Virus record (IMG/VR): IMGVR_UViG_3300031992_000063 | Location: 1 to 22,389 of that record | Origin: a virus | Taxonomy: Duplodnaviria; Heunggongvirae; Uroviricota; Caudoviricetes | Direction: 5' to 3' (one strand) | Length of the DNA stretch: 22,389 nt | In this document: positions 2 to 22,389 of the stretch, piece by piece | Position numbering within the stretch: position 1 is the stretch's first letter | Layout: every line of letters begins with the position of its first letter | Translations under genes and position numbers: made by a program | Notes under the pieces: generated by a model | Database searches by the model: none | Told to the model about the DNA's origin: nothing | Seen by the model: the letters and a program-made list of their open reading frames with translations, nothing else

Positions 2-226
2 AAGAATAAAGTGCTTAATGATGATATTGTTATAGAAGCAATTCCATCATAGTATATTAAAACATATGAATTTTATTCTGGAAATTATTCAGTAACGCCG
101 CTCGCGTTCGTAGATTAGCTTCTTCGTACTAATGACAAGGTAATGGAATAGAATGTAGTGGTAGAAAAAATACCATATGCCACTACTTCAAATGTTGCCG
201 GTGGGTATACGGCAATTATAGGATAA
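2..226 (+). CDS. Phage structural-region hypothetical protein, C-terminal part (5' truncated by window); code 15
   Basis: Frame open from base 2 with TAG=Q at 50, 116, 149: ...YSGNYSVTPLAFVDQLLRTNDKVMEQNVVVEKIPYATTSNVAGGYTAIIG; ends TAA 224-226, overlapping the SD (TAAGGAG) of the next gene. Confidence 0.8.
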
Positions 227-240
227 GGAGTTGAACAATT

Positions 241-846
241 ATGGCGACTAATCAATATATAAATAAAGTTATATATGGCGGCCAAACCTTAATTGACTTA
301 ACAGTGGATGATGTTACTAGAGCATCAGTACTTAGTGGTATTAAGTTCCATTTGCCTTCTGGCGAAGCAACCACTGGTACTTGCGAATATGACGCGAAAA
401 CATCTGATGCCACTGCGGTCGCCGCGGAAATTCTAGCAACGAAAACCGCCTATGTGAATGGCGCAAAAATCGTTGGTAGTATGCCTAATCGTGGTGCTGT
501 TGATGGGAGCATTACAGCCCTAGATGGAATTTACACAATTCCACAAGGTTATCATGATGGCTCTGGTAGGGTAAGCATTGCTAGCACAGAGCAGGCTAAG
601 TTGCTTCCTAGCAACATTCGCGAAGGTGTAACGATTTTAGGTGTAACTGGTACTATGAGTGGCTCTGAAGGTGTCAAGGCAACTTCATTAACTGTTACGC
701 CTTATACAACAGCACAGACAATAGTGCCTTCAGACTTAGGTGATTTCAATAGCATTACGCAAGTTAATGTTGCCGCAATTGCCTATTCTGAGACTGATAA
801 TGAATACGGTGGAGTAACTGTAACAATTGGCACTGTCGCCGCGTAA
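241..846 (+). CDS. Putative phage tail-associated protein, 201 aa
   Basis: SD AAGGAG upstream; intact ORF with no TAG; ATAxAxxIxxGKTAYVNG and NIRxGVTILGVTG motifs recur in the 2613 gene; C-terminus NEYGGVTVTIG resembles the upstream gene's C-terminus. Confidence 0.75.
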   Translation: MATNQYINKVIYGGQTLIDLTVDDVTRASVLSGIKFHLPSGEATTGTCEYDAKTSDATAVAAEILATKTAYVNGAKIVGSMPNRGAVDGSITALDGIYTIPQGYHDGSGRVSIASTEQAKLLPSNIREGVTILGVTGTMSGSEGVKATSLTVTPYTTAQTIVPSDLGDFNSITQVNVAAIAYSETDNEYGGVTVTIGTVAA

Positions 847-859
847 GGGGTGATGGCCA

Positions 860-1399
860 ATGGCAAATTTATATAAGAACAAAGTTGTTTATGGCAATGA
901 TGTGTTAATGGATATTACAGACACAACCGCCACTCCTAATGGCGTCGTAGAAGGTTAGGTATTCTACGGCGCCAATGGAGCCAGAAATGTGGGGACATTG
1001 GGATTGGTTACTACCACAACGAATGGACTTATGGCGGCAGTAGATAAGGCGAAGTTGGATGGGATTAACATTTATTGTAAGACAACGGCAGAATTGAATA
1101 ATGATATTAATTTCATTCCAGAACGTGGCGCGATTGTTATCTATCTAGACCATAATACAATGATTGACGATGTATCCGGGGAACCAGTAGTAGTCCCAGA
1201 TATTAAGATAGGAGATGGCAACGCATATTGTATTGATTTACCGTTTGTAAGAGATGCAGTATGTAATTCTATCCTAACGCAACTAAACGCGCATATGTCC
1301 GACTCTTCAATACATGTTACTCCCGCAGAAAAGCAATTTTGGAATTAGAAATTAAATTATGAAATTGAGGATGACATCCTCGTATTAAATTAGAATTAA
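860..1399 (+). CDS. Putative tail-associated protein, 179 aa; code 15
   Basis: ATG 860 after AGGGGTGA; MANLYKNKVVYGNDVLMDITD is paralogous to the start of gene 241; TAG=Q at 956, 1346, 1391; KIGDG motif; ends TAA 1397-1399. Confidence 0.8.
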
Positions 1400-1412
1400 G
1401 GATGTGAACTTT

Positions 1413-2393
1413 ATGCCTGAAATTAGTAAAATTAAAACGACAAATGGTACTGTGTATGACATAAAAGACACAGTCGCTCGTGCTACTATGGCTGGCGCCA
1501 TTCTTATTAAGGGTACAACTACTACAGCTTTGACTGACCAAGCAACTACTACGCCTATTAAAATTAACAATGCAGATTATACCCCCAAAGCTAATGACGC
1601 TGTTTTTTATAATAAGAAAGAATTTATATTTGATGGCACTAAGTGGCATGAATTCGGCGATATGACCGGATTAGGCGCATTGGCTACAAAGGATAGCGCT
1701 AGCGGCAGTTTTACTCCTGCTGGCACTGTTTCACAGCCAACATTTACTGGAACACAAAAATCAGTTAGCGTTAGCGGCAAACCTACTGGCTCTGTGACTA
1801 TCTCTACTGGCACTGGTACTGCTAACTACACTCCTTCTGGAACCGTTAGCAAGCCTACTTTTAGTGGCACTGCTACTACCTCTAGCGGTAAATTTACTCC
1901 AGCAGGAACTATTTCTGCCGCAAATAATACTAGCGGCAATTACACTCCCGCAGGTACCGTTGGTGCTCCTACTATTAGTGTTGCTACCGCCGGCGCGACT
2001 ACTACTGTTAATTCAATTACAAATGTGGGAACGCTACCTACACTAAGTACAACAGTAGAAGATGAGACATTAGTATTTAACTTTAGCCAAGGCACATTAC
2101 CTACAAAGGGTGCAGACACTACTGTAAAGACAGGCGATGCCTCGTATAGCGCTTCTGCTCCTTCTTTTACTGGTACTAAAGTAAAATTGTCATTTACTGG
2201 TACAGAAGGCAATGTTAGTGTTAGTGGTACGCCTACTGGTACTGTATCTCAGCCAACCTTTACAGGTGATGGAGCCGAACTCAAAGCAACATTTAGCGGC
2301 ACCTCTTTCACCTCTACCGGCAATTACACTCCAGAAGGAACGGTATCTCAGCCTACATTTAGTGGTACTCAGGGAACTGTTTCTGTTTCTTAA
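1413..2393 (+). CDS. Thr/Gly-rich repetitive tail-fibre-like protein, 326 aa
   Basis: ATG 1413 after AAGGATGTGA; no TAG; TPxGTVSxPTFxG repeats; N-terminal domain closely matches residues encoded at about 18043-18210 of the 17140 gene. Confidence 0.75.
   Translation: MPEISKIKTTNGTVYDIKDTVARATMAGAILIKGTTTTALTDQATTTPIKINNADYTPKANDAVFYNKKEFIFDGTKWHEFGDMTGLGALATKDSASGSFTPAGTVSQPTFTGTQKSVSVSGKPTGSVTISTGTGTANYTPSGTVSKPTFSGTATTSSGKFTPAGTISAANNTSGNYTPAGTVGAPTISVATAGATTTVNSITNVGTLPTLSTTVEDETLVFNFSQGTLPTKGADTTVKTGDASYSASAPSFTGTKVKLSFTGTEGNVSVSGTPTGTVSQPTFTGDGAELKATFSGTSFTSTGNYTPEGTVSQPTFSGTQGTVSVS
1710..2369 (+). repeat. Dispersed peptide repeat (F/Y)TPxGTVSxPTF(S/T)G, about 5-6 degenerate copies
   Basis: Visible in the translation of 1413-2393. 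Confidence 0.8.
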
Positions 2394-2409
2394 TTAAAGG
2401 AGGGGTAAT

Positions 2410-2601
2410 ATGGCTGATATTTCTAGTATTCAATTTGGTAGTAATGTATATAATATGAGAGACTATCGCCTACCCGCTTTTCCAAGCTCTACAACTACCA
2501 CCTATTTAAGAGGGGACGGCACATGGGCCGCCCCTTCTTTTCCGCAAGGAGTACAATTTATTGATAATAATGATCATTTGCTCGTTATTATTCCATCATA
2601 A
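2410..2601 (+). CDS. Small hypothetical protein with LRGDGTW fibre-type motif, 63 aa
   Basis: Strong SD AAGGAGGGG; ends TAA; paralogous to the N-terminus of the next gene (YNxxDxRxPA...LRxDGTW). Confidence 0.75.
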   Translation: MADISSIQFGSNVYNMRDYRLPAFPSSTTTTYLRGDGTWAAPSFPQGVQFIDNNDHLLVIIPS

Positions 2602-2612
2602 GGAGTGATTAA

Positions 2613-3890
2613 ATGGCAAGTGTAGATGTTAAGAAAATTAGGTTGAATAGCGGTACAACCTATAATATAAAAGATAGTCGAATTCCAGCATTGACAAATG
2701 ATACGGCAACATTTTTAAGAAGTGATGGTACTTGGTCTGACCCTACCGCTAACTTGCCAGAAACTACAGATGTTGTTGATAACGGCACCTATATGACAAT
2801 ATAGCCAACTGGTTCTAGTTCAGGAGTTGTGCTTCAAAGTAAAACTGGAATTACGCCCCTTACGACTTCATAGACTATTCGTCCTGATAGCGGATATGGC
2901 GGTTTAAGTTCGGTACAAATTAACGCTATGCCAAGTGGAGCAGTTTCCGCGCCGACATCTATATCAGGAAGCAGTGCGACTGTATCAACTGGCACCAATA
3001 CTTTAACATTAACCAAAACTATTTCAGTAACGCCTAATGTATCTACAGCAGGTTATATTAGCGCGGGAACAGCTACAAATAGCTCTGTGTCTTTAACTGC
3101 TTCAATTACAACTAAAGCGGCCGCAACTATTACGCCTACTACTTCTAATTAGAGTATTGCCGCAGGAACTTATTTAACTGGCGCGCAGACTATTAAAGGT
3201 GATAGCAATCTTGTAGCAGGGAATATAAAATCGGGTGTCACGATTTTTGGAGTAAGTGGCTCATATAGCGGCAGCGGTTCTAGTCCTTCACTATAGGCAA
3301 AAACAGGAATTGCTCCATCTACTTCATCTTAGACAATTACACCAGATAGTGGTTATGATGGTTTGAGTTCAGTCCAAATCAATGCTATGCCATCTGGTAC
3401 TACAACATCGCCAACCTCCATTTCTGGGACAAGCGCAACAGTATCTACCGGCACGAATACTATTACATTGACGAAGACAATTTCTGTTACTCCAAGAGTT
3501 ACTACCGCAGGATATGTTAGCGCAGGCACGGCAGGAAATTCAAGCGTTTCATTAACTGCTTCCGTTACTACAAAGGCAGCAGCAACAATTACTCCAGGTA
3601 CTAGTAATCAGACCATTGCGGCCGGAACCTATATAACGGGAACATAGACCATTTCTGGCGATGCCGATTTAACAGCAGCCAATATTAAGAAGGGTGTATA
3701 GATATTTGGCGTAACCGGCACATATACTAGTGATGCTAATGCTACTGCGGCCAATATTGCTAGCGGCAAAACCGCATATGTTAATGGGTCTAAAATTACT
3801 GGTACTTTGACATTCCAAACATACTATACAGGTTCATCTGCGCCCGCCTCAAGCCTCGGTGCAGATGGCGATATATATTTACAATCATAA
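2613..3890 (+). CDS. Tail-fibre-like protein with two 153-aa tandem repeats, 425 aa; code 15
   Basis: SD AAGGAGTGA; 7 TAG=Q (2802, 2871, 3150, 3294, 3330, 3645, 3699) join three listed ORF fragments in one frame; ends TAA 3888-3890; C-terminal GxDGDIYLQ motif. Confidence 0.85.
2832..3730 (+). repeat. Intragenic tandem duplication with a 459-nt (153-codon) period
   Basis: LQSKTGITPLTTSQTIRPDSGYGGLSSVQINAMPSG... vs LQAKTGIAPSTSSQTITPDSGYDGLSSVQINAMPSG...; collinear at an exact +459 offset at every position checked. Confidence 0.92.
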
Positions 3891-3906
3891 TAAAGGAGGA
3901 GAATAA

Positions 3907-6288
3907 ATGGCTTAGCAAATTAATGTTTCAGATACAATAACATTATATCCAAATGGATATAGTAGCGCCAACTCCTCCTACTCTTCTATTAGTAGTAGTT
4001 ATCCAATATCAAATGGTTACGATGGGGCAGATTCTAATAATTATGCCTATATTACTTGTAATACAGGTTCTCGCGCAGAAACTCATATTTCTTACACATT
4101 TGATGTGTCAGATATTCCCGCAGAAGCAACTATTTCATCTGTTGCTTGTTAGGCTAAGGTGCGCGTAAGTTCTACTTCATATATTTCTACCGCAGTAGTT
4201 CAATTGTATAGCGGTTCAACCGCAAAAGGTAGTTCTACTAGTGCGCGAACTACTACCGCAACTGCTTATACTCTAACTCCCGGTACTTGGACTAGGTCAG
4301 AAATTAATAATATACAAATACGATATACTGGTACTCGTGGTACAAGTAACACAACTCGTGCCGCCTATCTTTATTTCTATGGCGCAACATTAAGTATAAC
4401 TTATGCTATAGAGGGTATGGAATATACCGTTACTGCCGTTTCAGAAACGGATGGAACGACAGTAGAACCATTGGCGCAAAACATTATGGAAGGAAATAGC
4501 GCAACTGTTACTATATATGCTTCTTCCTTGGATGATATAGTAGTCAAAGATAATGAAATTGATGTAACTGAAAATTTGGTATAGCACACTATGCCAACAG
4601 GCGGCACATTATCTTAGGCGCCAGCGTCCTATACAGTATCAGGCTCTGTTAGTGGCACTCGTTATCGGGATACGGTAGGGCATACAGTAGATAATCCTTC
4701 ATCGCAAAGTGGTAATGACTATTGTAGCTCTAGCGGCAGTACCGCTACTATCTACTATCACTTTGATTTTAGCGACCTTCCAGACAATGCTACTATTACT
4801 TCAATGACAGTATAGGCACATGGTCATTTAGAGAATAGTTCTAATAGCAATGAAGTAGCCGAACTAAATGTTTATAACGGGACAACCGCAAAAGGCACAG
4901 CGATATCTTATACTTCTACTTCTAGTTAGACACGAACAATTAGTCCTGGCACTTGGACGGTAGCAGAATTAAAAGAGGACCCTCGCGTTGGATTTACTAT
5001 TGGTTACTATGGCGGCCTTACCACTGGTATTACTTGGACGGTAGCATATGATGTACCATCTAGCGGCAATCCTTACTATTGGACCTACACTCTTAATAAT
5101 ATTGATTTAGACCACTCAATTGTAGTAGAACAATCAGGACCATATGTGCCTCCCACAGAGGACCCCCAGTATAATTATTATCCAATTACTATTTCTAGTA
5201 TTAACGCAACTACTGACCCATATAATGGGACAACGCGTGTTTAGGAAGGAACTACGCAAGTCGTAACTATTAGTCCAACTGACCCGTAGCTTACACTGGC
5301 ATTAGACAATGGTGTTGATATTACAAGTTAGTTAGTTGGCGGCGTACCAAATAATACTTATACAGTTACCACACAAGTAAGCGGCGCCAGCTATGGTTTT
5401 AATCTAAACTCATCTACTGGTTATTATGTATCTACTAATGATGGTGTAAACAAGTCTGCTTCCGTTGCTCGTCTTAACTTAGATTTAGAAAGCGATTGTA
5501 TAGTTACTATTCAGTATATTAACTATGCCGAAGCAAACTATGACTATGGTTTGTTTGGCAAATTAGATGTATCGGTTGCGACAGATGGTTTAACCGCAGG
5601 TTCTAATGGTTCATCTCCATCGGATAGTACAAACAATTATGAGTTAGCAATGGCTTCAAATAGTAGCAGCACGCAAACTATTAGTTATACAGTGCCAATG
5701 GGGCAGCATTTTATTGATATCAAATATGGTAAAGATGATGCTTCTAACGCTAATAACGATAGTTTATAGTGGAAAGTTGCCTCAATTCAAGCGACCTCCG
5801 CGGGCGGAGACTACACTTATACATTGTCAAATGTAAATTAGAAACATAGTTTAATTTTTATATTTGGTGATGTTAGCTATTACTTCATTACTTCTTCTAC
5901 TAATAGTGGTAAGATTTTCCCTGATGGCTAGGTTGTTAAATTAGAAGGAGATAATTATAGTATTACTATAATTCCAAATAGTACTGCCGCGACTGTTACG
6001 TTGAAGGATAACAACATAGATAAAACTTCAACATTGTAGCGAATATAGGGCTAGGATAAATCGGGAAATCAAATTGTTAATTATACATACACATTGACAA
6101 ATATTACTGCGGCGCATACTATTGCGGTTACTATTAGTACAGGCGTGGCGCAGATTTATATAAAGATGGGAAATAGTTGGTAGGCGTATACTAATGTATA
6201 TAAGAAAGTAAATGGTAGTTGGATTAAATAGGCGGATTTAACTAGTGTATTTAATTCAAGTACAAATTATGTTTAGGGCAAGACTTAA
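3907..6288 (+). CDS. Large beta-rich virion protein (tandem beta-sandwich domains, possible adhesin/receptor-binding protein), 793 aa; code 15
   Basis: SD AAAGGAGGAG; ATG GCT TAG CAA; 18 in-frame TAGs and no TAA/TGA over 2.38 kb; two FDxSDxPxxATI...TAKG...PGTWT domains and YTYTLxNxxxxH repeats; ends TAA 6286-6288. Confidence 0.82.
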
Positions 6289-6292
6289 ACAT

Positions 6293-6378: not shown

Positions 6379-7971
6379 ATGGCTACAACCACAGGAAGCC
6401 GTTATGATCATATTGCCATATAGGATGGCAGTGATACAACATTACATTATTTAACTGATAATAGATACCCGGATGTGCCGAATGACTCGACTAAGTATCT
6501 GCGTGGAGATGGTACTTGGAATACGATTAACGTTAGTACGCCGTATATTGTTGGCACAGGGACTAGATCGGCTATCTTAAATAACAGCACTGATAATATT
6601 GCTAGTGGTACTGGAAGCATTGCTGATGGCCAAAACTGCTTAGCCAAAGGCAATTATTCGCATGCTGAAGGTTATACATCAGCAGCAGAAGGGACTGGTG
6701 CTCACGCTGAAGGCGGAGTGTCTGGAGCATTAACTCTTTCTTTCACTGGTTCTAATACATCTTACACAACTACATCAACAAGCAATTTAAAAGATACGTT
6801 TTTAGGTCACATTATATCATATAATAATATCACAACTTATATTACTTCCATTGACACATCTACCGGAGTTATCACTGTAGCTACTTCATTGGGGACATTG
6901 AATAACGCAAATGTGACTATACAAATAGCTGGTAATGCAGCGTATGGAAATGGTTCTCATGCTGAAGGGAGCAAAACGCTTGCTCAAGGCGCAGGATCAC
7001 ATTCTGAAGGTTATGAAACTATATCATATTCTGCTGAATCTCATGCTGAGGGTAATACGACACAAGCTCGTGGGGTATATTCTCATGCTGAAGGATACTT
7101 TTCAAAAACTACAGCTTCATACGCTCATGCAGAAGGTAATAGCACATCTGCTGAAGGTCAATCTACTCACGCAGAAGGATATGGAACCAATGCGATGGCC
7201 GCATTTTCACATGCGGAAGGACAAAATACATACACAAATGGTGAGTATTCTCATGCTGAAGGCTGTTATGCACACACATATGGCAATAATTCTCATGCTG
7301 AAGGTGGATATAATTCTACCACAACAATAAGTCTAACAGGTTCTGATACGACTTACACTTATTCTGGTACATCTGATTATAGTCATTATTTAGGAAAAAG
7401 AATAACTTATAATGGTATAACAAGCTTTATTACTGCAATGGACAATACAAATCGCACAGTGACTGTATCTACGACATTAGGTACTTTAAGCTCAACAAGA
7501 TGCGTGATATACGCTTATAGCCCATCCGCTTACGGCGTAGGTTCTCATGCAGAAGGATATGGAACCACTTCTTATGGAATATATTCTCACGCGGAAGGCC
7601 AATATACAATTGCAGAAGCTAATTTTTCTCATACAGAAGGATTGTCCACAAAAGCTAATGGGCAAGTATCGCATGCAGAAGGGTATAAAGCAATTGCTAA
7701 TGGCGAATATTCTCACGCAGAAGGCTATCTAACTATTGCATCAGGACAATATCAACACGCCTCTGGCAAATATAACGTAGAAGATCTCAATAATGCCTAT
7801 GCAGAAATAGTCGGTATTGGTTCCTCAACTTCTAATCGCAAAAACGGTCGCACTCTCGACTGGAATGGTAATGAACAACTCAGAGGTAGCTTAACACTTG
7901 GGTTGGGTACAACTGACCAGACAACTGTAACAGCGGCGCAACTCAAACAATTACTCGCATTATTATCTTAA
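6379..7971 (+). CDS. Tail fibre / adhesin with YadA-head-like (Hep/Hag-type) SHAEG repeats, 530 aa; code 15
   Basis: ATG 6379 after AGGTGGTGG; a single TAG=Q at 6421 (codon 15) extends the listed ORF 6475-7971; about 16 HAEG repeats with a 14-residue period; LRGDGTW motif near the N-terminus. Confidence 0.85.
6655..7770 (+). repeat. 14-aa SHAEG repeat array interrupted by two mutually similar inserts of about 75 aa
   Basis: Blocks of 2, 9 and 5-6 repeats separated by TLSFTGSNTSY...SLGTL and TISLTGSDTTY...TLGTL inserts. Confidence 0.85.
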
Positions 7972-8404: not shown

Positions 8405-8432
8405 TTTAATAACTTAAAAAGAGGTTATGATT

Positions 8433-8744
8433 ATGACAGACATTACTTATATTATTATAGGTGTAATTTTAATTATCTTTGGCGTAATCGCGCGATTTGC
8501 TATTCCTTTCCTTCGTACTAAAATGAGCGTGGATTAGATGGCAACCTTAAAACAGGTAGTCAATATCGCAGTCTACGCCGCAGAACAAATCCTCGGCCCG
8601 AAGATGGGTAAGGATAAAAAGGCATTCGCGCTTGAGTATGCCAAGAAACTCTTATCAAAATTCAATTTAACCTTTGATGAAGCAGCTATTGATGCCGCAA
8701 TTGAAGCACAGGTAAAAGAACTTAAAATTGAGGTAAAAGAATGA
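8433..8744 (+). CDS. Phage holin, LL-H-like family, 103 aa; code 15
   Basis: SD GAGGT 8421-8425; one N-terminal hydrophobic helix (ITYIIIGVILIIFGVIARFAIPFL); TAG=Q at 8535; AVYAAEQ...GKDKK...IDAAIEAQV pattern typical of LL-H holins; ends TGA overlapping the next ATG. Confidence 0.8.
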
Positions 8745-9007: not shown

Positions 9008-9424
9008 ATGAGCAACTTATTAAATCAAAATATGTGGAATTAGCAACCGCAGTATCAAATGGGAGGAGCAAATTTCTCTCCATATATAAACTAGTCTTGG
9101 CAAATGCCGCAACAGCAATAGCGTCTTCCAGTTTATAGCGCTCAGCCAATTCACGGTCATGATGCCGCCATGCAGTTCCTAATGGCGCCAAATAGTGAAA
9201 TTTATTTGCCCGATGCCGACCAAGATGTGATTTGGTGGATTAGAACTGATAACATGGGTAATCATTTGGTGTAGGGATTTGATATTAAATTACATCAAGA
9301 ACCTGCCCCAGTAGATACTAATGATTTAGCGGCTCGTCTTGCCGCAGTGGAGGAATGGATAAATGCCAAATCTAATAAGTCAAATGCGAAACGGAACACC
9401 GCAGGTGCCGCCACAGCTGAGTAA
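9008..9424 (+). CDS. Gln-rich hypothetical protein, 138 aa; code 15
   Basis: SD GGAGGA 8995-9000; TAG=Q at 9041, 9092, 9119, 9272, three of them in the Gln-rich N-terminal part (e.g. CAA CAG CAA TAG); ends TAA; absent from the supplied ORF track. Confidence 0.8.
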
Positions 9425-9623
9425 TTCAATTCAGTAGGTACGCGGCATGATGGAGGCTATGCGGCAAAGCCCCAATCCACAAGACTACATCATGCGTTAT
9501 TTGGGGCAAAATCCAGCATTATTAAAAGCCGTATAGCAAGGTAATTTACAAACCATAGCAGAACAAATGGCGCGGGAACGCGGCATTGATTTAAACGATC
9601 TTATTCATCAACTAGGAGGCTAA
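9363..9623 (+). CDS. Gln/Met-rich helical hypothetical protein, 86 aa; code 15
   Basis: SD GGAGGA 9349-9354; MPNLISQMRNG...ARERGIDLNDLIHQLGG; TAG=Q at 9435 and 9534, both adjacent to CAG/CAA; ends TAA; overlaps the previous gene by 62 nt. Confidence 0.78.
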
Positions 9624-9627: not shown

Positions 9628-9909
9628 ATGAATTACATTAAATTTAACGATTTACAGTGCCAAGTTATTTCCTTTAACAAATATACCAATTTTGATGAAA
9701 ATGGTATGACTGGTTCTTGTAATTGCCAGGTTCTAACTGATAATGTTACTGGACTACAGGAACTTGGACTTAGCCCCATCACTTCTCTTCAAATTCTACA
9801 TGAAGACGAAGTAATCTACAACCTACAAAACATTTCCGCAAAGGTAACCTCTATCAATGAATATCTCGCCGATAATCATATTGATATTAACCTAACAATC
9901 ACCTTCTAA
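9628..9909 (+). CDS. Hypothetical protein, 93 aa
   Basis: SD AGGAGG 9614-9619; no TAG; ends TAA and is followed by a terminator. Confidence 0.75.
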   Translation: MNYIKFNDLQCQVISFNKYTNFDENGMTGSCNCQVLTDNVTGLQELGLSPITSLQILHEDEVIYNLQNISAKVTSINEYLADNHIDINLTITF

Positions 9910-9914
9910 TTCTC

Positions 9915-9947
9915 AAGTGCGAATGAAAATTCGCACTTATTTTTTTT
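9915..9947 (+). terminator. Intrinsic (rho-independent) terminator
   Basis: AAGTGCGAAT-GAAA-ATTCGCACTT, a perfect 10-bp stem with GNRA loop, followed by A and T8. Confidence 0.85.
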
Positions 9948-10057
9948 ACACTTGTGAGAACAACTACCTAAATTATTTTTTAATACTCTTACATTTCCAT
10001 TGATAAGAGAAGTCTTGTCGCTTCCCTAAATAATAAAATATAAAGAGGTTGATTAGT

Positions 10058-10762
10058 ATGGGTGAAAATGGATTAACTGCTTCTGATGTTGCTCTACTTA
10101 GCGGCAATAATAATGGCGGATTTGGCGATGGAAATGGTTGGGGCGGTCTAATCTGGCTTTTCGCAATCATTGCTATGTTTAATGGCGGCTGGGGCGGCGG
10201 CTTCGGCGGCAATCGCGGAGGCTATCAACCACAGTATGCTACCCAAGACTTCGTTCAGAATGGTTTTAACTTTAATGACCTCCAGTCTCAGAACCGTGAT
10301 TTGATGGCGGCCATTACCTCTGGCGCAGCTCAGGCTGTAGCAGCTACCAATCAGGCTAAGTATGACAATATCAATGTTGAGAAAGATATCCAAGCCGCTC
10401 TCACAGCTCAAATTGGCGATGTGCGCACTAATCAAATGACACTTCTAGCCAATCAGAATGATTGCTGCTGCTCAACAAAGATGGCACTAATGGATGGCTT
10501 CAATGGCGTAAATGCTGGTATCGCTCAGGCTCGTTATGAGAACGCAATGAATACCGCTTCTATTAACCAGACCACCAATGCTGGCGTACAGAAGATTATT
10601 GATGCTATCACTGGCAATCGTATGGCTGATATGCAGAACCAAATCAACCAACTACAGCTACAGAACGCTCTAAATGGAGTTGTTCGTTATCCAAATGGTT
10701 GGACCTATAATGCAGGTAATAGTCCTTTTTGTAACGGTAACTGCAACTGCATGAATATGTAA
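10058..10762 (+). CDS. Gly/Asn/Gln/Cys-rich hypothetical protein with a hydrophobic N-terminal segment, 234 aa
   Basis: ATG 10058 after AGAGGT; GWGGLIWLFAIIAMFNGGWGGGFGG segment, CCC motif, C-terminal CNGNCNC; 20 Gln codons and no TAG. Confidence 0.8.
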   Translation: MGENGLTASDVALLSGNNNGGFGDGNGWGGLIWLFAIIAMFNGGWGGGFGGNRGGYQPQYATQDFVQNGFNFNDLQSQNRDLMAAITSGAAQAVAATNQAKYDNINVEKDIQAALTAQIGDVRTNQMTLLANQNDCCCSTKMALMDGFNGVNAGIAQARYENAMNTASINQTTNAGVQKIIDAITGNRMADMQNQINQLQLQNALNGVVRYPNGWTYNAGNSPFCNGNCNCMNM

Positions 10763-10811
10763 AAAACACATGAGTACATTGAGTGTATCTGTTTTTTAAA
10801 TAGTTTAGGGC

Positions 10812-10843
10812 GGGCACTCATGTTATGAGTGCCCAATTTTTTT
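10812..10843 (+). terminator. Intrinsic terminator between the 10058 and 10864 genes
   Basis: GGGCACTCAT-GTT-ATGAGTGCCC 10-bp stem followed by AA and T7. Confidence 0.75.
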
Positions 10844-10863
10844 ATTTACGGGAGGAATTAATA

Positions 10864-11277
10864 ATGATACAATTATATAGCGATGGTCTTACAGTTGCCG
10901 CTGGCGCAACTATTCCACTTAATAATGTAAGTTATTTTAAGGGTAATTCCGCTACTCATACTGCGCCCGCGACAGTTGATTTAATGAAACGCGGCGTATA
11001 TCTAGTCCAAGTAGATGCTTATGGCATCCCTGATGCCGCAGGAACCTTTGGCGTTCAAGTTGCCGTCAATGGCGTTCCTCGCCTCGACGCTATTAATGAA
11101 GATACCGCCGCAGTAGGCGAATATGGTTCCGTTTCTACCAAATGCTTGGTAACAGTAGCGCAAAATGACTGTCCTTGTAATTGCGTCTCTGCTCCAACCG
11201 CCGTTACCATTGTTAATCCAAGCGAAGTTGGCGCAACGGACGCTCATTATAATGTAATAGTTTCTAAGCTTTGCTAA
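10864..11277 (+). CDS. Small all-beta protein, possibly BclA-CTD/C1q-TNF-like jelly roll, 137 aa
   Basis: SD GGGAGGA; alternating beta-strand pattern with GVYLVQVDAY and a CPCNC motif; fold assignment is pattern-based inference. Confidence 0.55.
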   Translation: MIQLYSDGLTVAAGATIPLNNVSYFKGNSATHTAPATVDLMKRGVYLVQVDAYGIPDAAGTFGVQVAVNGVPRLDAINEDTAAVGEYGSVSTKCLVTVAQNDCPCNCVSAPTAVTIVNPSEVGATDAHYNVIVSKLC

Positions 11278-11291
11278 GGAGGGAATGTACT

Positions 11292-12089
11292 ATGGCACAA
11301 GCAAATCAAGAAGTACAGCAACTCTACTCCGAGCTAATTAATAGAATGAAACAAGGTGTAGAGATGCACGAACAGTTAGCAGACTATTATGGATTTCTTA
11401 ATTTACCCGGCTATCAAAAATGCCATGAGTATCAAATGCTTTGTGAATTACTAACCTACCGCAAGGCGAAGGATATGTATATGCGCGAATATAACCAGTT
11501 AGTATCTCCTAATATGATGGCTTTTACTACTGGTATGAATAATAACATGAATAACAATAACAATAATCAAAAGAATATGTCTAATAATAATAACAATAAT
11601 AATAGCAATTTTTCCTATAACAATATGAACTATACCAATGTAATTCCTCAGAACTGGTATTCTCATACTCGTTATGAAGTTGATGCCAATACCAAACGTA
11701 CCGCAGTACATGATGGCTTCAAGAAATGGATTGACTATGAGAAAGATACTAAACAATATTTATTAGACATGGCTCAGCGGCTAGAGCAAGCTAATGAACG
11801 TGAGGCCGCGCGAAAACTTGATTATCTAATTGACCATGTTGAAAAAGAAATTGAGCACGCTGAAGAAAAGGTAATGGCACTTGAAAATAGTGGCTATGAT
11901 ATGAACTACATTCTCCAGCAACAAGATAAATTAAAGTCCAAATATGCTAAAAAAATCCGCGAATTAAATAACAGTGATTATCAGTATCGTCGCCGTGGTG
12001 CTGGTAATTACGCAAATTATAATTATGATGATGACGAAGATTATGAATACGGAAAACATAATCCTCGCTATTATCATTATGATGAATAA
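11292..12089 (+). CDS. Putative ferritin-like four-helix-bundle protein with poly-Asn insert and Tyr/Asp-rich tail, 265 aa
   Basis: SD AAGGAGGG; helix spacing LADYYGFLNLPGYQKCHEYQMLCE ... WIDYEKDTKQYL ... LIDHVEKEIEHA parallels the ferritin A/B, C and D helices; 18 Gln codons and no TAG. Confidence 0.6.
   Translation: MAQANQEVQQLYSELINRMKQGVEMHEQLADYYGFLNLPGYQKCHEYQMLCELLTYRKAKDMYMREYNQLVSPNMMAFTTGMNNNMNNNNNNQKNMSNNNNNNNSNFSYNNMNYTNVIPQNWYSHTRYEVDANTKRTAVHDGFKKWIDYEKDTKQYLLDMAQRLEQANEREAARKLDYLIDHVEKEIEHAEEKVMALENSGYDMNYILQQQDKLKSKYAKKIRELNNSDYQYRRRGAGNYANYNYDDDEDYEYGKHNPRYYHYDE
11536..11635 (+). repeat. AAT/AAC low-complexity tract encoding poly-Asn
   Basis: MNNNMNNNNNNQKNMSNNNNNNNSNFSYNNMN. 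Confidence 0.85.
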
Positions 12090-12457: not shown

Positions 12458-12924
12458 TGTATATAGATACAAGACATAGAACTAGGGATTTACTGTTAGA
12501 GTATGATACAAGTATCATGCCATTGCATCCTCGCGCCGGAGGACTTGCAATGGTATATCCCTGGGGTAACAATAATGATAGTGACACAGCAATGCCACCT
12601 TTTCCTGATTTATCTGCTATAAAGTTAATTTATCCTTGGTCTATGCAAGAATTAACAATCATGGGCGACTGGCTATTTGCTTTAGCCGCGAGTAGTGGAT
12701 ATAAAGGAACCAGAACTGAATTTTATGCTAATTTTGGCTCATATCTTGAAAACAATAAACAAGAAATTGTGTTTGACACATATGAAAAATTTCCTCAAAT
12801 TGGCGCGCAAGATATGTTATATTTTGACCTTGACAAAAAAATCTTATATTATTGGGATGGAGAATACATTCCAGTCAACGCTATGTTGATTACTGAGACG
12901 ATTTTGAATGGAGGTGAGGCTTGA
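12457..12924 (+). CDS. Hypothetical structural-region protein, 155 aa
   Basis: Coupled by TAATG and TGATG overlaps; C-terminal FPxIGxxxxLYxD motif also seen in the 15436 gene; no TAG. Confidence 0.72.
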   Translation: MYIDTRHRTRDLLLEYDTSIMPLHPRAGGLAMVYPWGNNNDSDTAMPPFPDLSAIKLIYPWSMQELTIMGDWLFALAASSGYKGTRTEFYANFGSYLENNKQEIVFDTYEKFPQIGAQDMLYFDLDKKILYYWDGEYIPVNAMLITETILNGGEA

Positions 12925-13628
12925 TGGCGACTAATACAGTAAAAGTTACTTTACAAATTAGGCACGATGAAGCGCAAGATTGGGTTACAAGAAATCCGGT
13001 ACTTGCAGCAGGCGAATATGGTTTAGAAACTGATACTTTCTTAATTAAAATAGGCGACGGGGTGCGCGATTGGGCCCACCTCTCCTATTTAAATAAATTT
13101 GATGCGTCATACTTTAAGTACGATGCAGAAAATGATTAGTACACTTTTAGCGATGAATTTATGAATAAAATTCATACGCTAGAAGCCGCCGCAGGTGAGG
13201 CAATTACTTAGTTAATAGTAACCGAGCCTCCAGTTAATGACACCGATGTACCTAATAAAAAGTACGTTGACGATGCTATTGCAGCCGCGGGCCATTTACA
13301 TCGCGAGGTTGTTTCTACTTTACCTGATGCGGCAGATGCCGACCCAAATACTCTTTACATGATGCTTTCAACTGATGGCTCTCATTATGAAGAGTATATG
13401 GTAATAAATGGTGTCTGGGATATGGTTGGTAGTACCGGCGATGGTACTGGTGGCGCCTTTATATTAGAGGTAGCAACAAACGCGCGATTGGGCGGCGTTA
13501 AGTCATCTACTGATGATGATTATATTTCAGTATAGCCAGATGGATTTATGACATTGAATAAAGTTTCAACTACAAAATTGTATGTGCCAACGGGAGATAC
13601 GTTGGTGATATACGGAGGTACAGCTTAA
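12924..13628 (+). CDS. Tail-fibre-type protein with Mtd_N/hyaluronidase-N-like N-terminal domain, 234 aa; code 15
   Basis: LQIRHDEAQDWVTRNPVLAAGEYGLETDTFLIKIGDG matches the Mtd_N pattern; TAG=Q at 13137, 13209, 13533; ends TAA 13626-13628. Confidence 0.8.
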
Positions 13629-17126: not shown

Positions 17127-17139
17127 GAGGTGAAATGAG

Positions 17140-18888
17140 ATGGCAAATATAATTGAACGAGTTAAAGTAGGTGGCACTGTACATGATATTGCCTCTACAG
17201 CATATAGAGTAAGTTCTTAGGCCGCGAATGATCCAGAAAAAACTATAAACATAGATGGCTTCGCGCTTGAAACAGGTGTAACCATTCATGTAAAATTTGC
17301 TAATGCAAATACTGCTCCAAATCCTACATTAACAGTATCTGGAAGCGGTTCAACTGGAAATAGTGCCGTGCCAATTGTCGGACGTACTGTTTGGCCTGCA
17401 GGGGCATTATTTACACTAACCTATGATGGAACTAATTGGGTATAGGATTATGATGAAATTATTACCAATGGTATTACTGGTAGCGGTACTAGTGGCAGCT
17501 TAGTAAAATTTAATGGTACAAATAGTATTACAAATGGTCCAGCATTAGGCAATGATGCTACAAAATTCTTAAATAATAAAGGTGAATGGGTAACTCCAAA
17601 TTATACTACTAATACTGATGAGAAGGTAACACAAACTGGAATTACATCTAATGCCGAATATTCTATTCTTTTAAAACATAGCACCGGTACAACTGATGAA
17701 ACAACTGGTGTTAATTATGGAAAAACTTCTAATAAGTTAGTAACTATTAATCCCAGTACTGGTAGGATTACCGCGCCCGGTGGATTAGAAGGTAATGCCT
17801 CTACGGCGAGTGAGCTTTCATCAAATACATCAATAACATTATCGGGTGATGTTTCTGGTAGTGTAAGTGCAAAAAAAGATTGGAATATTACCACTACTAT
17901 TGGAGAAGGCAAAGTTACTAATGCAATGTTAGCCGGTTCTATTACTAATAATAAATTAGCTAATCATAGTATTACAATCGGTAATGTTACTAAAAATTTA
18001 GGTGAAACTTTTACACTTGATGAACTTGGTATTTCTGCCGCAATGCACTTTAAAGGCACCACTACAACTGCTTTATCTGATGACGCAACGACAAGTCCAA
18101 TTACAATTAATAGTAAGGATTACACTCCAAATTCTGGTGATGTTGTACTTTATAGCGGGAAGGAATATGTGTGGACTGGTAGTGCTTGGGAACAATTAGG
18201 AGATGAAAGTTCTTGGGCGTTAAATAGTGAAGTAATTAAAAATACAGGTTCTAAAGGTGATATTCTTTATTGGTCTGATACTAATACTCCTACGCGCTTA
18301 GCTAAGGGTAATAATGGTTAGGTATTAAAAATTAATAGTAATGGTGTACCGGCTTGGAGTACAGATAATAATGATAATACAAAAGTAACATAGAATATAC
18401 TTACGACAAGTGCTACGGATACTTATCCATTGTTGGTTTCTTATTATAAAACTACTGGGACCGATGCTTCAGCGACTACCGCCTAGACAGCTAATAGAGT
18501 TGCTGCAATTTATGTATAGCCATCTACTGGTACACTTACAGCTACTAAATTTGTAGGCGATGGCTCAGGAATTACCAATTTATCTGCTACTGCAATTAAA
18601 ACAGCATTGGATACTGGTTCTACTTCCGATCCAATCTTTTTACATAAAAGCGGGGCTTGGAAAACTTTAAAAGTAAGCGTTACTGCTAATAATAATGGTT
18701 CAGTTGTTACAAATGTAGGATTTAATTAGGGTGCATTTCCTACTTTAAGTGGTGGAGTAGCAACTAAAGCAGAAGTAGTTAATGCTGTATTAGAAATAAC
18801 TGCTGGCAGCAATGCTTCTTTAAGTACCGGTACCTTACCATCTTTAGGCACAATAAGTAGAGCAAATCTTACAGTAAGTTATACATAA
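17140..18888 (+). CDS. Tail-fibre-like protein, 582 aa; code 15
   Basis: SD AGAGGTGA; 7 TAG=Q; TIHVKF..NPTL..YDGTNWV, GNASTA and LSGDVSGS fibre motifs; joins listed ORF 17926-18321; ends TAA 18886-18888. Confidence 0.8.
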
Positions 18889-18900
18889 GGCGGTGATTAA

Positions 18901-21900
18901 ATGGCAAGTCAAGTAAGCGGTGTTATTGAATATATTTAGCCAGGTGGCTCTAGCGGTACTAAGTACGCAATCGCGGCAACCGCTTATGGCGTTTGTGATG
19001 TCGCCGCAAGTGAATCAATTAAAAATGTAGATATGACGGGATTTAAGCTAGAGAAAGGCATGACGGTTCATATTAAATTTACTAATGCCAATTCTGCTAG
19101 CAATCCGAAATTAAAATTTAATAGTGAAGCAGATACCAATGCTAAACCTATTGTATAGTACGGTACTACCGCCGCAGGAACCACCGAAGAAACCAATGGC
19201 TGGTATGCCGGGGCAGTTCTTACTTTAACCTATGATGGAACTAGTTGGGTTAGAGACTAGGGATTTAATACTAATGTGAATACATGGCGTGGTATCCAAG
19301 ATAAATTAACTTCCGATAGTGCTACTGATTCTTTAAGCGCTAAACAAGGTAAAGTTCTAAAAGGATTAATAGACGAAATGGATGCCACGACTCCTGCCGC
19401 GGATGGTAATGCTACTGCTTTTATTGATGACATTACGTAGACTGATGGGAAAATTACTTCTATTACAAAGAAAAACATTCCCACTGTATCTTCTAGTACG
19501 GCAGGCTTGGCACCAAAAGGCGAAGCTGTCAGTAGTTAGTCTCAGTCAACTAAATTTTTGCGTTCAGATGGACAATGGGTAGCCCCAAGTTATACCGTAA
19601 TTCAAGGTACTGCTGGAGATAATTTAATTTCTAATTTATATTTATCAGCATACGGTGGCAGTATTGTAAGTTATGATTCATTAAAACATGAATATACAAT
19701 GTCCCCAACTACTGATAAAGCAAGCGGCGTGACTGGGCTAACTATTGCTAATAATAAGGTCTATATTCCTTGGGGATATAACTTTATTTTAAGTTGTGAA
19801 ATTTATTCTACAGTTGCGGCATCATTTAGTTATGATGAAAATACAGCGTTAGAAAGTGGTTATACTGGTAATCATAGCAGTAATGATTGGTATAATAATC
19901 ATAAGGGTAGTAGTACTAGTATACCTGCTAATACATGGACAAAAGTATGGTATTCGCATAGTAATACTGATGAAACAAAAAACCCAAATCATGGTGGAAT
20001 TTGGGAATATAGTTATTTTGGAATTATAATAAATGATAATACTAAAAATAAGCAATTCAAAATAAGAAATGTTTATGGTTATTTTGGAACAGATACTAGT
20101 GCCTATTATCATCATAACGGTTTTGAAAGTATTAAAAATATTACTCGTGATGGCACAACTTTTACTGCTACAAGATTAGATGGCTCTACTTTTACTTTTT
20201 CTCAACAAGACTCCGACACCAAATCTTTTACTATTACAGCAAACGCAACTGATGGCTTATGGGATTTAACTGGTACTAATGGAACAAATGCAGTTACCTA
20301 TTCACTTGCTCCATATAGTGCTAAAGGTTCTGCCGCGAGTTTTTATACAGCAGCAACTAATCCTACTTTAACGACTAGATTAAATTATGATGGTTATCTT
20401 TACGCGACTAAATTATATAGCGGCGGTTCAGAAGTTTCTATTAATGGGCATACACACTCTTATTTAGTTCCATTAGCGTCAATAAGTAGCGGACAAAATT
20501 CACCTAATAATACATTATTATTAGCAATCAAAAAATATTTTGATGATAATAAAACTACAATACCACGAAATTCTTTAATTGATTTATAGGTTTCTGCTTA
20601 CAGTAATAGTCTTAATGCGTTTGGATATTTTATTAGCAATTATAACGATAATCCATATGGTGGTTTTTTTGTTACTCACTATAATACTCCACGCTATATT
20701 GGCATATCAGGTGGTAATTATGATGAATCTCGTATTGCTCGTATTGACGTAACGAATACAACTACTAATGGTCAAATTATAATTGCAGATGGTTCCGATG
20801 GAAAAATTAAAACAAGTGGTTATACAATTGCTACTTCAGTCCCGGCAAATGCAGTATTTACAGATACGAATAAATATCATAAAAGTGGTTCATGGGGCGG
20901 TACTAATAATTTAACATATACCGCTACTGCAGTTAACAGTGCAGATACATTAGCGTTTACATTAGCAACAGCTTCTACAAGTGCTTATGGCGCAACTAAA
21001 TTATATAGCGGTGTTGATAGTAATTCTGAAGCTTTTTCTGCAACTCCTAAGGCAGTCAAAATAGCATACGATTAGGCAACAACTGCTTTAAATACCGCAA
21101 ACAACTTATTAGCAACAGCAGATGCTTTGGTATTTAAAGGCACTCTAAGTGATGCTACAAAAGTACCGTCTAATGGTTATTCGGCTGGTTGGACTTACAA
21201 AATTACTGCTGATGGTACTTACGCCGGTATTGTTTGTGAAGTAGGTGACTTATTAATTGCCACAACTGATGCTACGGATGGACAAACTGCAGTTAATAAT
21301 GCTCATTGGACTGTTGTACAAGAAAATATTAATGGCTATATTCATTATTTTAATAATCATGATAATGATATTGATTCATTAATTACTATGCCATATTTAC
21401 AGACCGCAGCATTAAATGGTGGAAATTGGAGCGGTACAAAACCAACAGGTTCACATAATGGTGTTGCTTTATTTAACTTTTAGACACATAATGGTAATTA
21501 TTATACACAATTAGCTTTAGATACAAATCAAAATCGTTTATGGCTTCGCTCTGCAAATAATGCTACAACTTTTGGAAATTGGGCTAAAATTGCTACGGTA
21601 GCGGATATTGAGGCGTTGGATGCTAACTTAAATAGTACTACTCCAGGAGCGGGAAAAACTCTCACTGCTTTTTCATAGACTGATGGTAAGGTTAGCGCTA
21701 CCTTTGGAAATATAAGTATTACAAAATCATAGGTCAGTGATTTTTCGCATACACACCCTGTTTCTCAAATAACTTGGAGTGGTGGCCAAAACTTAGCTAC
21801 TAGCGCGACAGCCAATAATTAGGAATGGTCTATCGACTTAACCCCCGGCTCTTATACTGGAACATATTGGCATGTTTGGAGTGCTACTAAGAGTGGTACA

Positions 21901-22389
21901 ATATTAGGATGTTATCCAGATGATCGGCATGTCACAATGCCAGGCAATATAGCTTCAACTTCTACTTCAACCGGTACTTTATAGGTAACGGGTGGTATTG
22001 GAGCTACTGGATAGGTCACGGCTACACGACTTGCCGCGAATGGAAGTAATACTTCTTATAATTTATATGTAAATGGTACCTCATTATTTAATGGTGATAT
22101 TACTGCCACTGGCAATTCTATATTATATAAAAAAGACGGTTCTCTTAAAATTTATACTACTACTAATACAACTTATGGAGCAGAATCGGTAGCAATTCAA
22201 ACTTGTTTTGATGATAAAGATCCAACCGATATCTCTCATACGTATACTACTACATATGAAGAACGATGCAATTTAATATTGCAACCTAAAGGTGGATAGG
22301 TATATATTGGTGAAGATTTAACAACCGTAGGTAATAAAAATTATTCATTATATGTTACTGGCGGCACATACTTAGGTGGACAAATTAAA
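18901..22389 (+). CDS. Long tail fibre / receptor-binding protein (over 1163 aa, 3' truncated by window); code 15
   Basis: SD AAGGCGGTGA; one frame with 14 TAG=Q and no TAA/TGA to the window end; tail-fibre repeat ASTSAYGATKLYSGVDSNSEAFSATPKAVKIAYD (20971-21072), HTH motifs, knob-like QLALD..RLWLR..W..I segment, TGTLQVTGGIG motif. Confidence 0.85.

Follow-up and report, generated by a model that had tools for sequence, protein, structure and literature searches.

Probable reading of TAG as glutamine in the late genes of an uncultivated phage that encodes a five-arm tRNA(CUA)

Results

Gene content and coding density of the window

The window analysed here (22,389 nucleotides, from IMG/VR record IMGVR_UViG_3300031992_000063) is the first part of an 86-kb contig, which is about 49% complete and derives from a phage of about 170 kb. 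It holds the late block, with tail fibres and lysis genes (Table 1), of an uncultivated phage from rumen-type samples. Complete relatives with direct terminal repeats measure 167, 169, 169 and 184 kb, and T4-type features, namely a Gp10-like baseplate protein and PhoH, are present in the lineage. No match was obtained among deposited phages when 12 kb of the window was used in a megablast search. The nearest deposited phage was phAss-1, reached via a gyrase-B/topoisomerase-type protein encoded at contig positions 76713–78578 (34.7% amino acid identity). Shine-Dalgarno cores were located upstream of 13 of the 25 window genes and, genome-wide, upstream of 52 of 85 genes compared to 7% of random positions, pointing away from Bacteroidota hosts.

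Table 1. Genes of the window, with TAG read as a sense codon.
Feature	Position	Strand	In-frame TAG and other details
3' end of a gene truncated by the window start	2–226	+	3 TAG; stop TAA; phrog_31538, E 1.4e-14
Tail-fibre-like protein, 201 aa	241–846	+	TAG-free; phrog_13589, E 1.8e-51
Protein, 179 aa	860–1399	+	3 TAG, one in EGqVFYG
Thr/Ser/Gly-rich repeat protein, 329 aa	1404–2393	+	TAG-free
Tail-fibre-like protein, 425 aa, internal duplication	2613–3890	+	7 TAG, Gln in relatives at five
Protein, 793 aa	3907–6288	+	18 TAG vs 15 CAA/CAG; most recoded complete gene of the window
Protein with SHAEG-type repeats, 530 aa	6379–7971	+	1 TAG; phrog_25468, E 4.7e-45
Holin (Holin_LLH)	8427–8744	+	TAG at codon 37, inside the PF09682 match (E 1.2e-16); stop TGA
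SH3_3 domain protein, 87 aa	8741–9004	+	TAG-free; PF08239, E 8.7e-11
Gln-rich protein, 138 aa	9008–9424	+	4 TAG, one inside QQQQ; unseen in code 11
Protein, 86 aa	9363–9623	+	2 TAG; 62-nt overlap with gene 9008 in a different frame; unseen in code 11
Four-gene TAG-free island (9628, 10049, 10783/10825, 11271)	9628–12089	+	
ORF with an alternative ATG at 10825	10783–11277	+	1 TAG upstream of ATG 10825; TAG-free if begun there
Protein, 119 aa	12098–12457	+	2 TAG; unseen in code 11
Tail fibre, Mtd_N-type N-terminus	12921–13628	+	3 TAG; PF18454, E 1.8e-9
Tail-fibre-like protein, 586 aa	13643–15403	+	13 TAG
Tail-fibre or assembly-like protein, 181 aa	15436–15981	+	1 TAG
Protein, 381 aa	15981–17126	+	8 TAG
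Protein, 582 aa	17140–18888	+	7 TAG
Tail-fibre-like protein, first 1163 of 2387 codons	18901–22389	+	14 TAG in the window; phrog_381

An earlier note on this DNA, made from the letters alone, had proposed comparing coding density under translation tables 15 and 11. This was done as greedy ORF coverage, and the density of the window rose from 62.2% (code 11) to 96.4% when TAG was taken as a sense codon, whereas the controls gave 69.8% (TGA as sense) and 82.7% (TAA as sense). Under code 11 the window yielded 36 ORFs on both strands, compared to 24 genes, all of them on the plus strand, with TAG as sense. For the whole contig the density increased from 70.5% to 91.8%.

In-frame TAGs numbered 88 across 16 ORFs, and the count given previously (about 87 in 15 genes) coincides with ours if gene 10783 begins at ATG 10825, past its TAG. 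It had also been stated that no gene ends in TAG; indeed, the 24 complete genes stop at TAA (22) or TGA (2), and all 113 ORFs of the contig terminate at one of these two codons. The frames described as open for up to 3.5 kb were likewise found: the last one stays open for 3489 nt within the window and continues to contig position 26064, encoding 2387 amino acids with 33 TAGs. The longest ORF free of TAA and TGA reached 1163 amino acids, compared to 279 in 50 shuffles of the window.

The sequence contexts quoted in the earlier note were all present: gene 860 contains EGqVFYG, gene 13643 contains KIqLRY, and gene 9008 has a TAG within QQQQ. The three genes that it reported as hidden (9008, 9363 and 12098) were missing from the code-11 ORF list and were recovered with TAG as sense; all three have homologues at the protein level in relatives. 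The holin, PhoH, radical SAM, Laminin_G_3 and Gp10_C proteins match Pfam and PHROG domains over stretches that include TAG codons. The base at position +4 after TAG (A 0.30, C 0.21, G 0.34, T 0.16) was near that of ordinary Gln codons, and no marked codon-context bias was observed after TAG.

Distribution of TAG among genes

Recoding had been ascribed to the whole window, which holds for the 16 ORFs that bear TAG, but TAG does not occur in nine or ten genes, four of which form an island (P = 5e-18 for the TAG-free genes taken together). Along the contig, the TAG-rich parts comprise 0–37.5 kb (tail, baseplate and holin) and a few islands, whereas TAG is missing from 49–60.7, 62.9–66.7 and 69–80 kb. 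Recoding differs from gene to gene: it is heavy in the structural genes, extends to the holin, and spares the replication-type genes as well as some genes of the window. This split between structural/lysis and replication genes matches the published model for recoded phages. Borges et al. (10.1101/2021.08.26.457843) described recoding of late and lysis genes and suppressor tRNAs, together with relatives that keep the standard code and in which TAG stops are depleted. Codon usage also varies among the TAG-free genes; in gene 10049, 13 of the 20 Gln codons are CAG, and the contrast between CAG-rich and CAG-poor genes is a general early/late codon-usage difference. An Atlas look-up of this gene (10049–10762) returned viral hypothetical proteins only.

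TAG-bearing late genes would abort until the tRNA(CUA) builds up, and the code switch might in this way act as a timer for virion and lysis proteins, in line with the published model, a role to which we give an even chance, with early and late assigned from gene functions. It is rather unlikely, albeit a serious contender, that TAG encodes Gln with no part in timing, either through a neutral ratchet, in which TAG stops become rare, a suppressor is captured and CAG drifts to TAG, or as a defence against hosts or co-infecting phages, the TAG-free genes then being recent imports from standard-code phages. TAG stops are scarce in the standard-code relatives of the same family (0–4 per locus), TAG positions are nearly uniform along genes and fall where constraint is weak, and among the TAG-free genes are exchangeable tail-fibre modules (241–846 and 1404–2393) as well as one gene with early-type, CAG-rich codon use, all of which would fit a role without timing. 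Such a history does not readily account for the sharpness of the split between structural/lysis and replication-type genes over the whole contig, which fits a convergent pattern reported in several phage clades, nor for the TAG in the holin or the frequent location of the first TAG within the first 15 codons of a gene.

Residues opposite TAG in homologous proteins

Residues aligned with the TAGs of the window were collected from 15 standard-code relatives. Gln occupied 74 of the 246 positions (30% against a background of 4.1%, a 7.3-fold enrichment), followed by Thr (28) and Asn (20), and the enrichment of residues other than Gln was never above 1.9-fold. In this set the log-likelihood fell below that of Gln by 133 for Lys, 134.5 for Glu and 154 for Ser. 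With all relatives included, Gln was found 100 times (84 CAA and 16 CAG) and TAG itself 80 times, and the log-likelihood gap was 188. Because CAA, the codon mostly seen, is two mutations away from TAG, mutational proximity cannot explain the Gln signal. The predominance of CAA at orthologous sites also led us to drop the idea that TAG is a specific substitute for CAG.

Considered site by site, Gln was the most frequent residue at 26 of 75 sites, followed by Thr, which led at 8. Individual sites with strong conservation include 12113 in gene 12098 (Gln in 16 of 17 relatives) and, in gene 13643, 13868 (12 of 12) and 13673, the TAG of the KIqLRY context (8 of 12). TAG214 of the PhoH gene was aligned with Gln12 of PDB 3b85. 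In TAG-bearing genes, Gln made up 2.28% of residues, and 3.68% once TAG was read as Gln; the value for TAG-free genes was 3.26%.

The earlier note had expected homologue columns to be dominated by Gln. The outcome favoured its reading, Gln being the only enriched residue and the one of maximum likelihood, with the qualification that it formed a plurality and not a majority. Ordinary Gln codons were conserved at 61% in the same alignments; TAG thus lies mostly at weakly constrained sites, and its assignment to Gln is a statistical one. Arg, Lys, Thr, Asn, Asp or Glu occupies several of the conserved columns opposite TAG. Taken with the coding density, these data make it very probable that TAG in this phage is a sense codon read as Gln.

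A five-arm tRNA(CUA)

The scan for a tRNA(CUA) suggested previously was successful: one gene was located at contig positions 37995–38084, 15.6 kb beyond the window end. ARAGORN analysis of whole genomes also identified a tRNA(CUA) in G002 and G003, two recoded relatives with complete genomes, and none turned up in the tRNA arrays retrieved from two complete relatives of standard code. A DNA search of five relatives with the tRNA(CUA) gave no match, the sequences being too diverged. The accompanying scan for glutaminyl-tRNA synthetase (GlnRS) and release-factor genes detected no RF-1/PCRF or class-Ic synthetase domain in G000, G002 or G003; since the contig is 49% complete, this absence rests on the two complete relatives.

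The tRNA(CUA) has five arms, consisting of a normal CUA anticodon arm plus an extra hairpin. The loop of this hairpin has a 7-nt consensus, YUYUGAR, which resembles the anticodon loop of tRNA-Gln, and in this genome it is 6 nt long (AUUGAC). IMG/VR phages yielded 65 different long tRNA(CUA), and phAss-1 is also a carrier. The motif YTGA was present in the extra arm of 61 of the 65 (62 of 66 in the arm comparison), compared to 16.5% after shuffling and to 5 of 99 long arms of Ser, Leu and Tyr tRNAs from the same loci. RNAalifold retained the extra hairpin, the two pairs of which show 27 and 9 double compensatory changes. Among the flanking loci of long tRNA(CUA), 34 of 37 gained more than 5% coding density when TAG was sense. 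Literature searches returned no account of phage CUA tRNAs with an additional or a long variable arm.

The tRNAs were compared with the Gln identity set according to E. coli rules (weak 1:72, G2-C71, G3-C70, G73, G10, U35 and A37; Gln identity elements are reviewed in PMC9976931). Of the 65 members of the set, 59 have a weak or mismatched 1:72 pair, 53 have G73, 52 have G2-C71 and 19 have G3-C70. The tRNA(CUA) of this genome has an A1/C72 mismatch, G2-C71, G10, G73, U35 and A37, but C3-G70 and A36. As regards its origin, tests of the nearest isotype with either arm removed gave no consistent answer (Lys was most frequent, Trp and Gln being minorities), and pairwise alignment to the phages' own tRNAs was inconsistent, so that neither a Trp nor a Gln derivation was supported.

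The tRNA was also examined with respect to the very improbable reading of TAG as a sense codon for Ser, Leu, Tyr, Trp, Lys or pyrrolysine. ARAGORN displays a 90-nt tRNA(CUA) with a class-II-like long variable arm, labelled Pyl, and this long arm is at first sight suggestive of Ser, Leu or Tyr. However, its Gln-type loop is almost missing from Ser, Leu and Tyr arms, and 5–7 nt separate the extra arm from the T stem in most long tRNA(CUA) (41 of 65), unlike the class-II geometry of 1–2 nt. A suppressor derived from a class-II Ser or Tyr tRNA was accordingly dropped on homologue columns, arm geometry and loop motif. G73 speaks against Leu and Tyr identity under E. coli rules. Resemblance to tRNA-Trp (A1, G73 and a CUCNAAA loop) and the Lys, Arg, Thr or Asn of some conserved columns could also be counted for another residue, as could the Trp, Ile and Tyr minorities among isotype predictions for phage tRNA-Sup (PMC10879173). 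Against this, Trp was absent opposite TAG in the standard-code relatives, where Tyr (3), Leu (6) and Ser (12) were rare, and the log-likelihood deficits given above for Lys and Ser are far exceeded by those of Leu, Tyr and Trp.

The TAGs would be undecoded if the region were a decaying or pseudogenised element, or if they stood for CAG through errors in assembly or sequencing. This reading has nothing in its favour but the bare presence of stops and can be dismissed, because the 88 TAGs are accompanied by no TAA or TGA in 24 frames that far exceed shuffles, the proteins are conserved in relatives on either side of the TAGs, the genome encodes the cognate tRNA, and the same TAG sites in independent contigs from other metagenomes (39 in L005, 32 in L006, 11 in L008 and 6 in L028) defeat the objection of an assembly artefact raised in the earlier note.

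Discussion

Gut phages with TAG recoding have been described before, and the five-arm tRNA(CUA) is the unusual part of this system; it probably implements the recoding in this phage. With TAG read as Gln, the tRNA would be charged by the host system, either by GlnRS or by GluRS plus amidotransferase, and the Gln-charged form would then beat host RF1 at UAG. The extra loop may confer Gln identity together with the weak 1:72 pair, G2-C71 and G73, leaving decoding to the CUA loop.

We tentatively propose, giving it somewhat less than an even chance, that TAG is read as Gln here and in many recoded phages by an undescribed tandem-anticodon-arm tRNA, the second hairpin of which is a decoy identity element. 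The YUG loop of this hairpin, flanked by U33- and A37-like bases, would pass for that of a tRNA-Gln, allowing the Gln-charging enzymes of the host to take a tRNA whose decoding anticodon has no G36. Both hairpins might even exchange the anticodon-arm position between charging and decoding. Against a role of the extra arm in charging, it is not evident that in a standard L-shape a short hairpin of the variable region could reach the anticodon pocket of the synthetase.

The recoding has practical consequences. The standard code misses or fragments about a third of the window, with the conserved genes 9008, 9363 and 12098 vanishing, and breaks the 2387-amino-acid tail-fibre protein at its 33 TAGs; gene calling in rumen viromes therefore has to take the genetic code into account. 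The family is a mix of standard-code and TAG-recoded members with 46–84% protein identity, and provides a natural series on how a stop codon gets captured. The recoding literature has asked how phage suppressor tRNAs are charged with Gln without a phage synthetase, for which the five-arm tRNA, shared by at least 65 different sequences and also encoded by a published phage, offers a testable hypothesis; this tRNA might also serve as a new scaffold for amber suppression.

Comparison with known systems

Amber suppressors of E. coli that insert Gln include supE (tRNA-Gln CUA) and su+7 (tRNA-Trp CUA), and mischarging mutants of supF and supD with altered 1:72 and 73 also insert it. What makes these E. 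coli suppressors acceptable to GlnRS is a set of features also seen in the phage tRNA(CUA), namely G73, G2-C71, a weak first pair and a CUA anticodon containing U35 and A37. In contrast, the E. coli suppressors are four-armed or ordinary class-II molecules, none being known to have a second hairpin with a Gln anticodon loop.

The earlier note had related this DNA to TAG-to-Gln recoding in gut phages such as the crAss-like and Lak lineages. The phenomenon is indeed known, but judged by size this phage fits neither lineage, its complete relatives measuring 167–184 kb and the Lak megaphages about 540 kb or more. Code 15 has been described in crAss-like, Lak, Garnet, Amethyst and some Agate gut phages (10.1101/2021.08.26.457843), with proteomic proof of TAG-to-Gln in crAss-like phages (PMC9523058). 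The present phage has in common with them TAG in structural and lysis genes with replication genes largely in standard code, its own tRNA(CUA) with no phage synthetase, and close standard-code relatives depleted in TAG stops. It differs in belonging to a separate lineage with genomes of about 167–184 kb, direct terminal repeats and T4-type features. RF2, present in Lak and in two TAG-recoded Agate phages, was not found in this lineage. The Agate phages, a large-genome clade with some cattle-derived members, could be the same group as this phage.

The nearest deposited phage, phAss-1 (OQ749652.1; proposed Phassvirus group; PMC10607447), uses code 15, with TAG in 41 ORFs; a Clostridia host is predicted for it, and no synthetase is reported. 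It stems from the human gut, its genome measures 136 kb, and it is only distant kin of the present phage. Its suppressor tRNAs were annotated in the paper as tRNA-SUP-CTA with Gln isotype, and the extra arm is unmentioned in the passages retrieved from it. phAss-1 has the same five-arm tRNA(CUA), with 91% identity to a consensus-like member of the set, next to a class-I tRNA(CUA).

Reading frames under the two codes

With the standard bacterial code (code 11), the window falls apart into 27 ORFs of 80 aa or more, spread over the two strands, whereas a single close-packed row of genes was obtained on the + strand with TAG as sense. In the comparison of codes proposed by the earlier note, greedy ORF tiling covered 62.2% of the window with code 11 and 96.4%, on a single strand, with TAG as sense; control tilings with TGA or TAA as sense reached 69.8% and 82.7%, respectively. 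The longest ORF free of TAA and TGA in the window had 1163 aa, as against 279 aa across 50 shuffles, and the last gene runs past the window end to a total of 2387 aa with 33 TAGs. The 88 in-frame TAGs found in 16 ORFs match the 87 in 15 genes counted earlier if gene 10783 starts at the ATG at 10825. Of the 24 complete genes, 22 terminate with TAA and 2 with TGA, as had been tallied, and the quoted sequence motifs are found in the translations. Homologues of genes 9008, 9363 and 12098, described as hidden from the standard ORF track, occur in related phages. The first two of these genes (9008-9424 and 9363-9623) share 62 nt (9363-9424) that are read in different frames; both are conserved in relatives, and GGAGG lies 9 nt upstream of the ATG of the second. 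The arrangement may be a plain overlap or a programmed frameshift.

Amino acid encoded by TAG

The window genes were translated with X for each TAG and aligned by tblastn to all related loci. Opposite the TAGs, the standard-code relatives (n = 246) showed Gln 74 times, followed by Thr (28), Asn (20), Lys, Ala and Glu (16 each), Arg (13), Ser and Asp (12 each), Leu (6) and Tyr (3). Gln accounts for 30% of these residues against a background of 4.1% (7.3-fold), and any other residue is enriched at most 1.9-fold. With a substitution table derived from the same alignments, Gln was the maximum-likelihood identity of TAG, leading Lys by 133, Glu by 134.5 and Ser by 154 log units in the standard-code relatives; with all relatives its lead was 188 log units. 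An assembly artefact is argued against by same-site TAGs in contigs of other metagenomes (39 in L005, 32 in L006, 11 in L008 and 6 in L028). Mutational proximity does not explain the Gln signal either, since the aligned Gln codons were mainly CAA (84, versus 16 CAG), which is two mutations away from TAG. If TAG is counted as Gln, the share of this residue in TAG-bearing genes rises from 2.28% to 3.68%, close to that in TAG-free genes (3.26%). In the PhoH-like gene, TAG214 is aligned with Gln12 of 3b85, a solved PhoH-type protein from outside the phage family. Gln occupies 28-30% of TAG columns, compared with 61% conservation of ordinary Gln codons in the same alignments, indicating that TAG lies mainly at weakly constrained positions. 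Both the recoding and the reading of TAG as glutamine hold.

Distribution of TAG and gene content

The window forms the initial 22.4 kb of one viral contig (86,389 nt, 37.5% GC, estimated completeness 49%) that contains 221 in-frame TAGs, concentrated in the structural block at 0-37.5 kb. Elsewhere, TAGs occur in genes for a 673-aa protein (18 TAGs), PhoH, a GIY-YIG endonuclease and a methylase, and none is present at 49-60.7, 62.9-66.7 and 69-80 kb. The earlier claim that the whole window is recoded is an overstatement, because nine or ten of its genes are TAG-free and jointly have 72 Gln codons without a TAG (P = 5e-18 at the 43% TAG share of recoded genes). The TAG-free genes may have been acquired recently from phages with the standard code, or may be needed ahead of a code switch. 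In gene 10049-10762, 13 of the 20 Gln codons are CAG, as in early genes.

PHROG and Pfam matches identified several tail-fibre-like proteins (phrog_13589, phrog_381, Mtd_N), a holin and an SH3_3 protein in the window; most remaining proteins lack a named family. Downstream, the structural genes continue (Laminin_G_3, a T4 Gp10-like baseplate protein, the phrog_5302 tail protein), followed by a radical-SAM gene, a 19-gene tRNA array (38-49 kb) and replication-type genes.

Features of the window and the contig (L001 and L002 are pieces of the contig)
Feature	Position	Observation	Basis
TAG-free tail-fibre modules	window 241-846, 1404-2393	phrog_13589 and phrog_38337 modules of 241-846 shared with 2613-3890	
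Tail-fibre-like gene	window 2613-3890	internal duplication, module ~170 aa	
Tail-fibre-like gene	window 6379-7971	many SHAEG-type repeats	
Holin_LLH holin	window 8427-8744	TAG at codon 37	PHROG/Pfam match
TAG-free island	window 9628-12089		
cow-rumen-4 RNA	contig 37551-37613 (L001:15551-15613)	just after radical-SAM gene, before tRNA(CUA)	Rfam, 63.8 bits, above gathering score
Apparently interrupted tRNA gene	contig 42254-42417 (L002:1254-1417)	164 nt	Rfam full-length tRNA; missed by ARAGORN
abiF RNA match	L002:3487-3523	inside tRNA array	Rfam

Relatives and host

In IMG/VR, 24 related loci were found (66-100% identity to one conserved protein), and four related records, of 167-184 kb, have direct terminal repeats. 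The homologous region is recoded in L005-L009, L011, L012, L014 and L028; in L010, L013 and L015-L027, code 11 already gives full coding density, and TAG stops are nearly absent. No DNA-level match was found among deposited phages; judged by the gyrase-B/topoisomerase-type protein encoded at contig 76713-78578, the nearest is phAss-1 (34.7% aa identity). Of 85 genes, 52 have a Shine-Dalgarno motif in front of them, compared with 7% of random positions, so the host probably uses such motifs and is unlikely to belong to the Bacteroidota.

Decoding machinery

The tRNA with a CUA anticodon anticipated by the earlier note was located by ARAGORN and Rfam at contig 37995-38084, and also occurs in both complete recoded relatives. 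It was not found in the fetched tRNA arrays of the two complete standard-code relatives (leaving out an Rfam tRNA match at G009:53063-53135). These relatives (G008 and G009, L047-L050) have both tRNA-Gln(CUG) and tRNA-Gln(UUG); the contig and its recoded relatives G002 and G003 have tRNA-Gln(UUG) and the five-arm tRNA(CUA) described below, without tRNA-Gln(CUG). The same note had proposed a scan for GlnRS and release-factor genes; neither a release-factor domain nor a GlnRS/GluRS catalytic domain was detected in the contig or the two complete recoded relatives, which suggests that tRNA(CUA) charging and termination rely on the host. Another relative (G010), whose homologous region is apparently standard-coded, has a different, AT-rich class-I tRNA(CUA) (77 nt, L051:19293-19369) adjoining tRNA-Trp. 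The anticodon loop of this tRNA (GUCUAGC) is unusual, and the tRNA may be a suppressor that does not function or may reflect the situation before recoding.

A probable suppressor tRNA with five arms

The tRNA(CUA) of the contig has 90 nt and an extra hairpin (5-bp stem, 6-nt loop AUUGAC), with an A/C mismatch at 1:72. In two scans of IMG/VR, the search pattern specified nothing beyond a CUA loop, a long gap and a T loop; these scans yielded 110 tRNA(CUA), 78 distinct and 65 long, and five-arm tRNA(CUA) are widespread. In 34 of 37 flanking loci, reading TAG as sense increased the coding density by over 5%. The Gln-type loop motif YTGA was present in the extra region of 61 of the 65 long tRNAs (16.5% when shuffled). 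A Ser- or Tyr-type scaffold, the first reading, was rejected, this motif being rare in Ser/Leu/Tyr long arms of the same loci (5/99). RNAalifold predicted from 63 aligned sequences that the hairpin closes a 7-nt loop (consensus CUCUGAA), with 27 and 9 double compensatory changes at its two pairs, and its spacing to the T stem is 5-7 nt in most long tRNAs, resembling an ordinary variable loop. At the acceptor end, where 1:72, 73 and 2:71 are important for glutamine identity (PMC9976931), 59 of the 65 have a weak or mismatched 1:72 pair, 53 have G73 and 52 have G-C at 2:71. Judged from these sequence features, the five-arm tRNA may be a suppressor bearing a decoy glutamine anticodon loop; attempts to assign its ancestral isotype gave no consistent answer.

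Comparison with known recoded phages

Code 15 is already known in gut and rumen phages, and the present phage is a further case; the practical worth of the recoding lies mainly in annotation. The more novel part is the five-arm tRNA, located outside the window, and no description of its extra arm was found in the literature searched. In phAss-1, likewise a code-15 phage, a class-I tRNA(CUA) (U1/C72 mismatch, G73) is directly followed by a five-arm one (OQ749652.1 62445-62610; L165:1410-1575), both annotated only as tRNA-Sup-CTA, and several IMG/VR contigs (e.g. L057, L087 and L098) have this tandem arrangement too. In published recoded phages, late and lysis genes are recoded and standard-code relatives are depleted in TAG stops (10.1101/2021.08.26.457843); the overall TAG distribution of the contig follows the same pattern.
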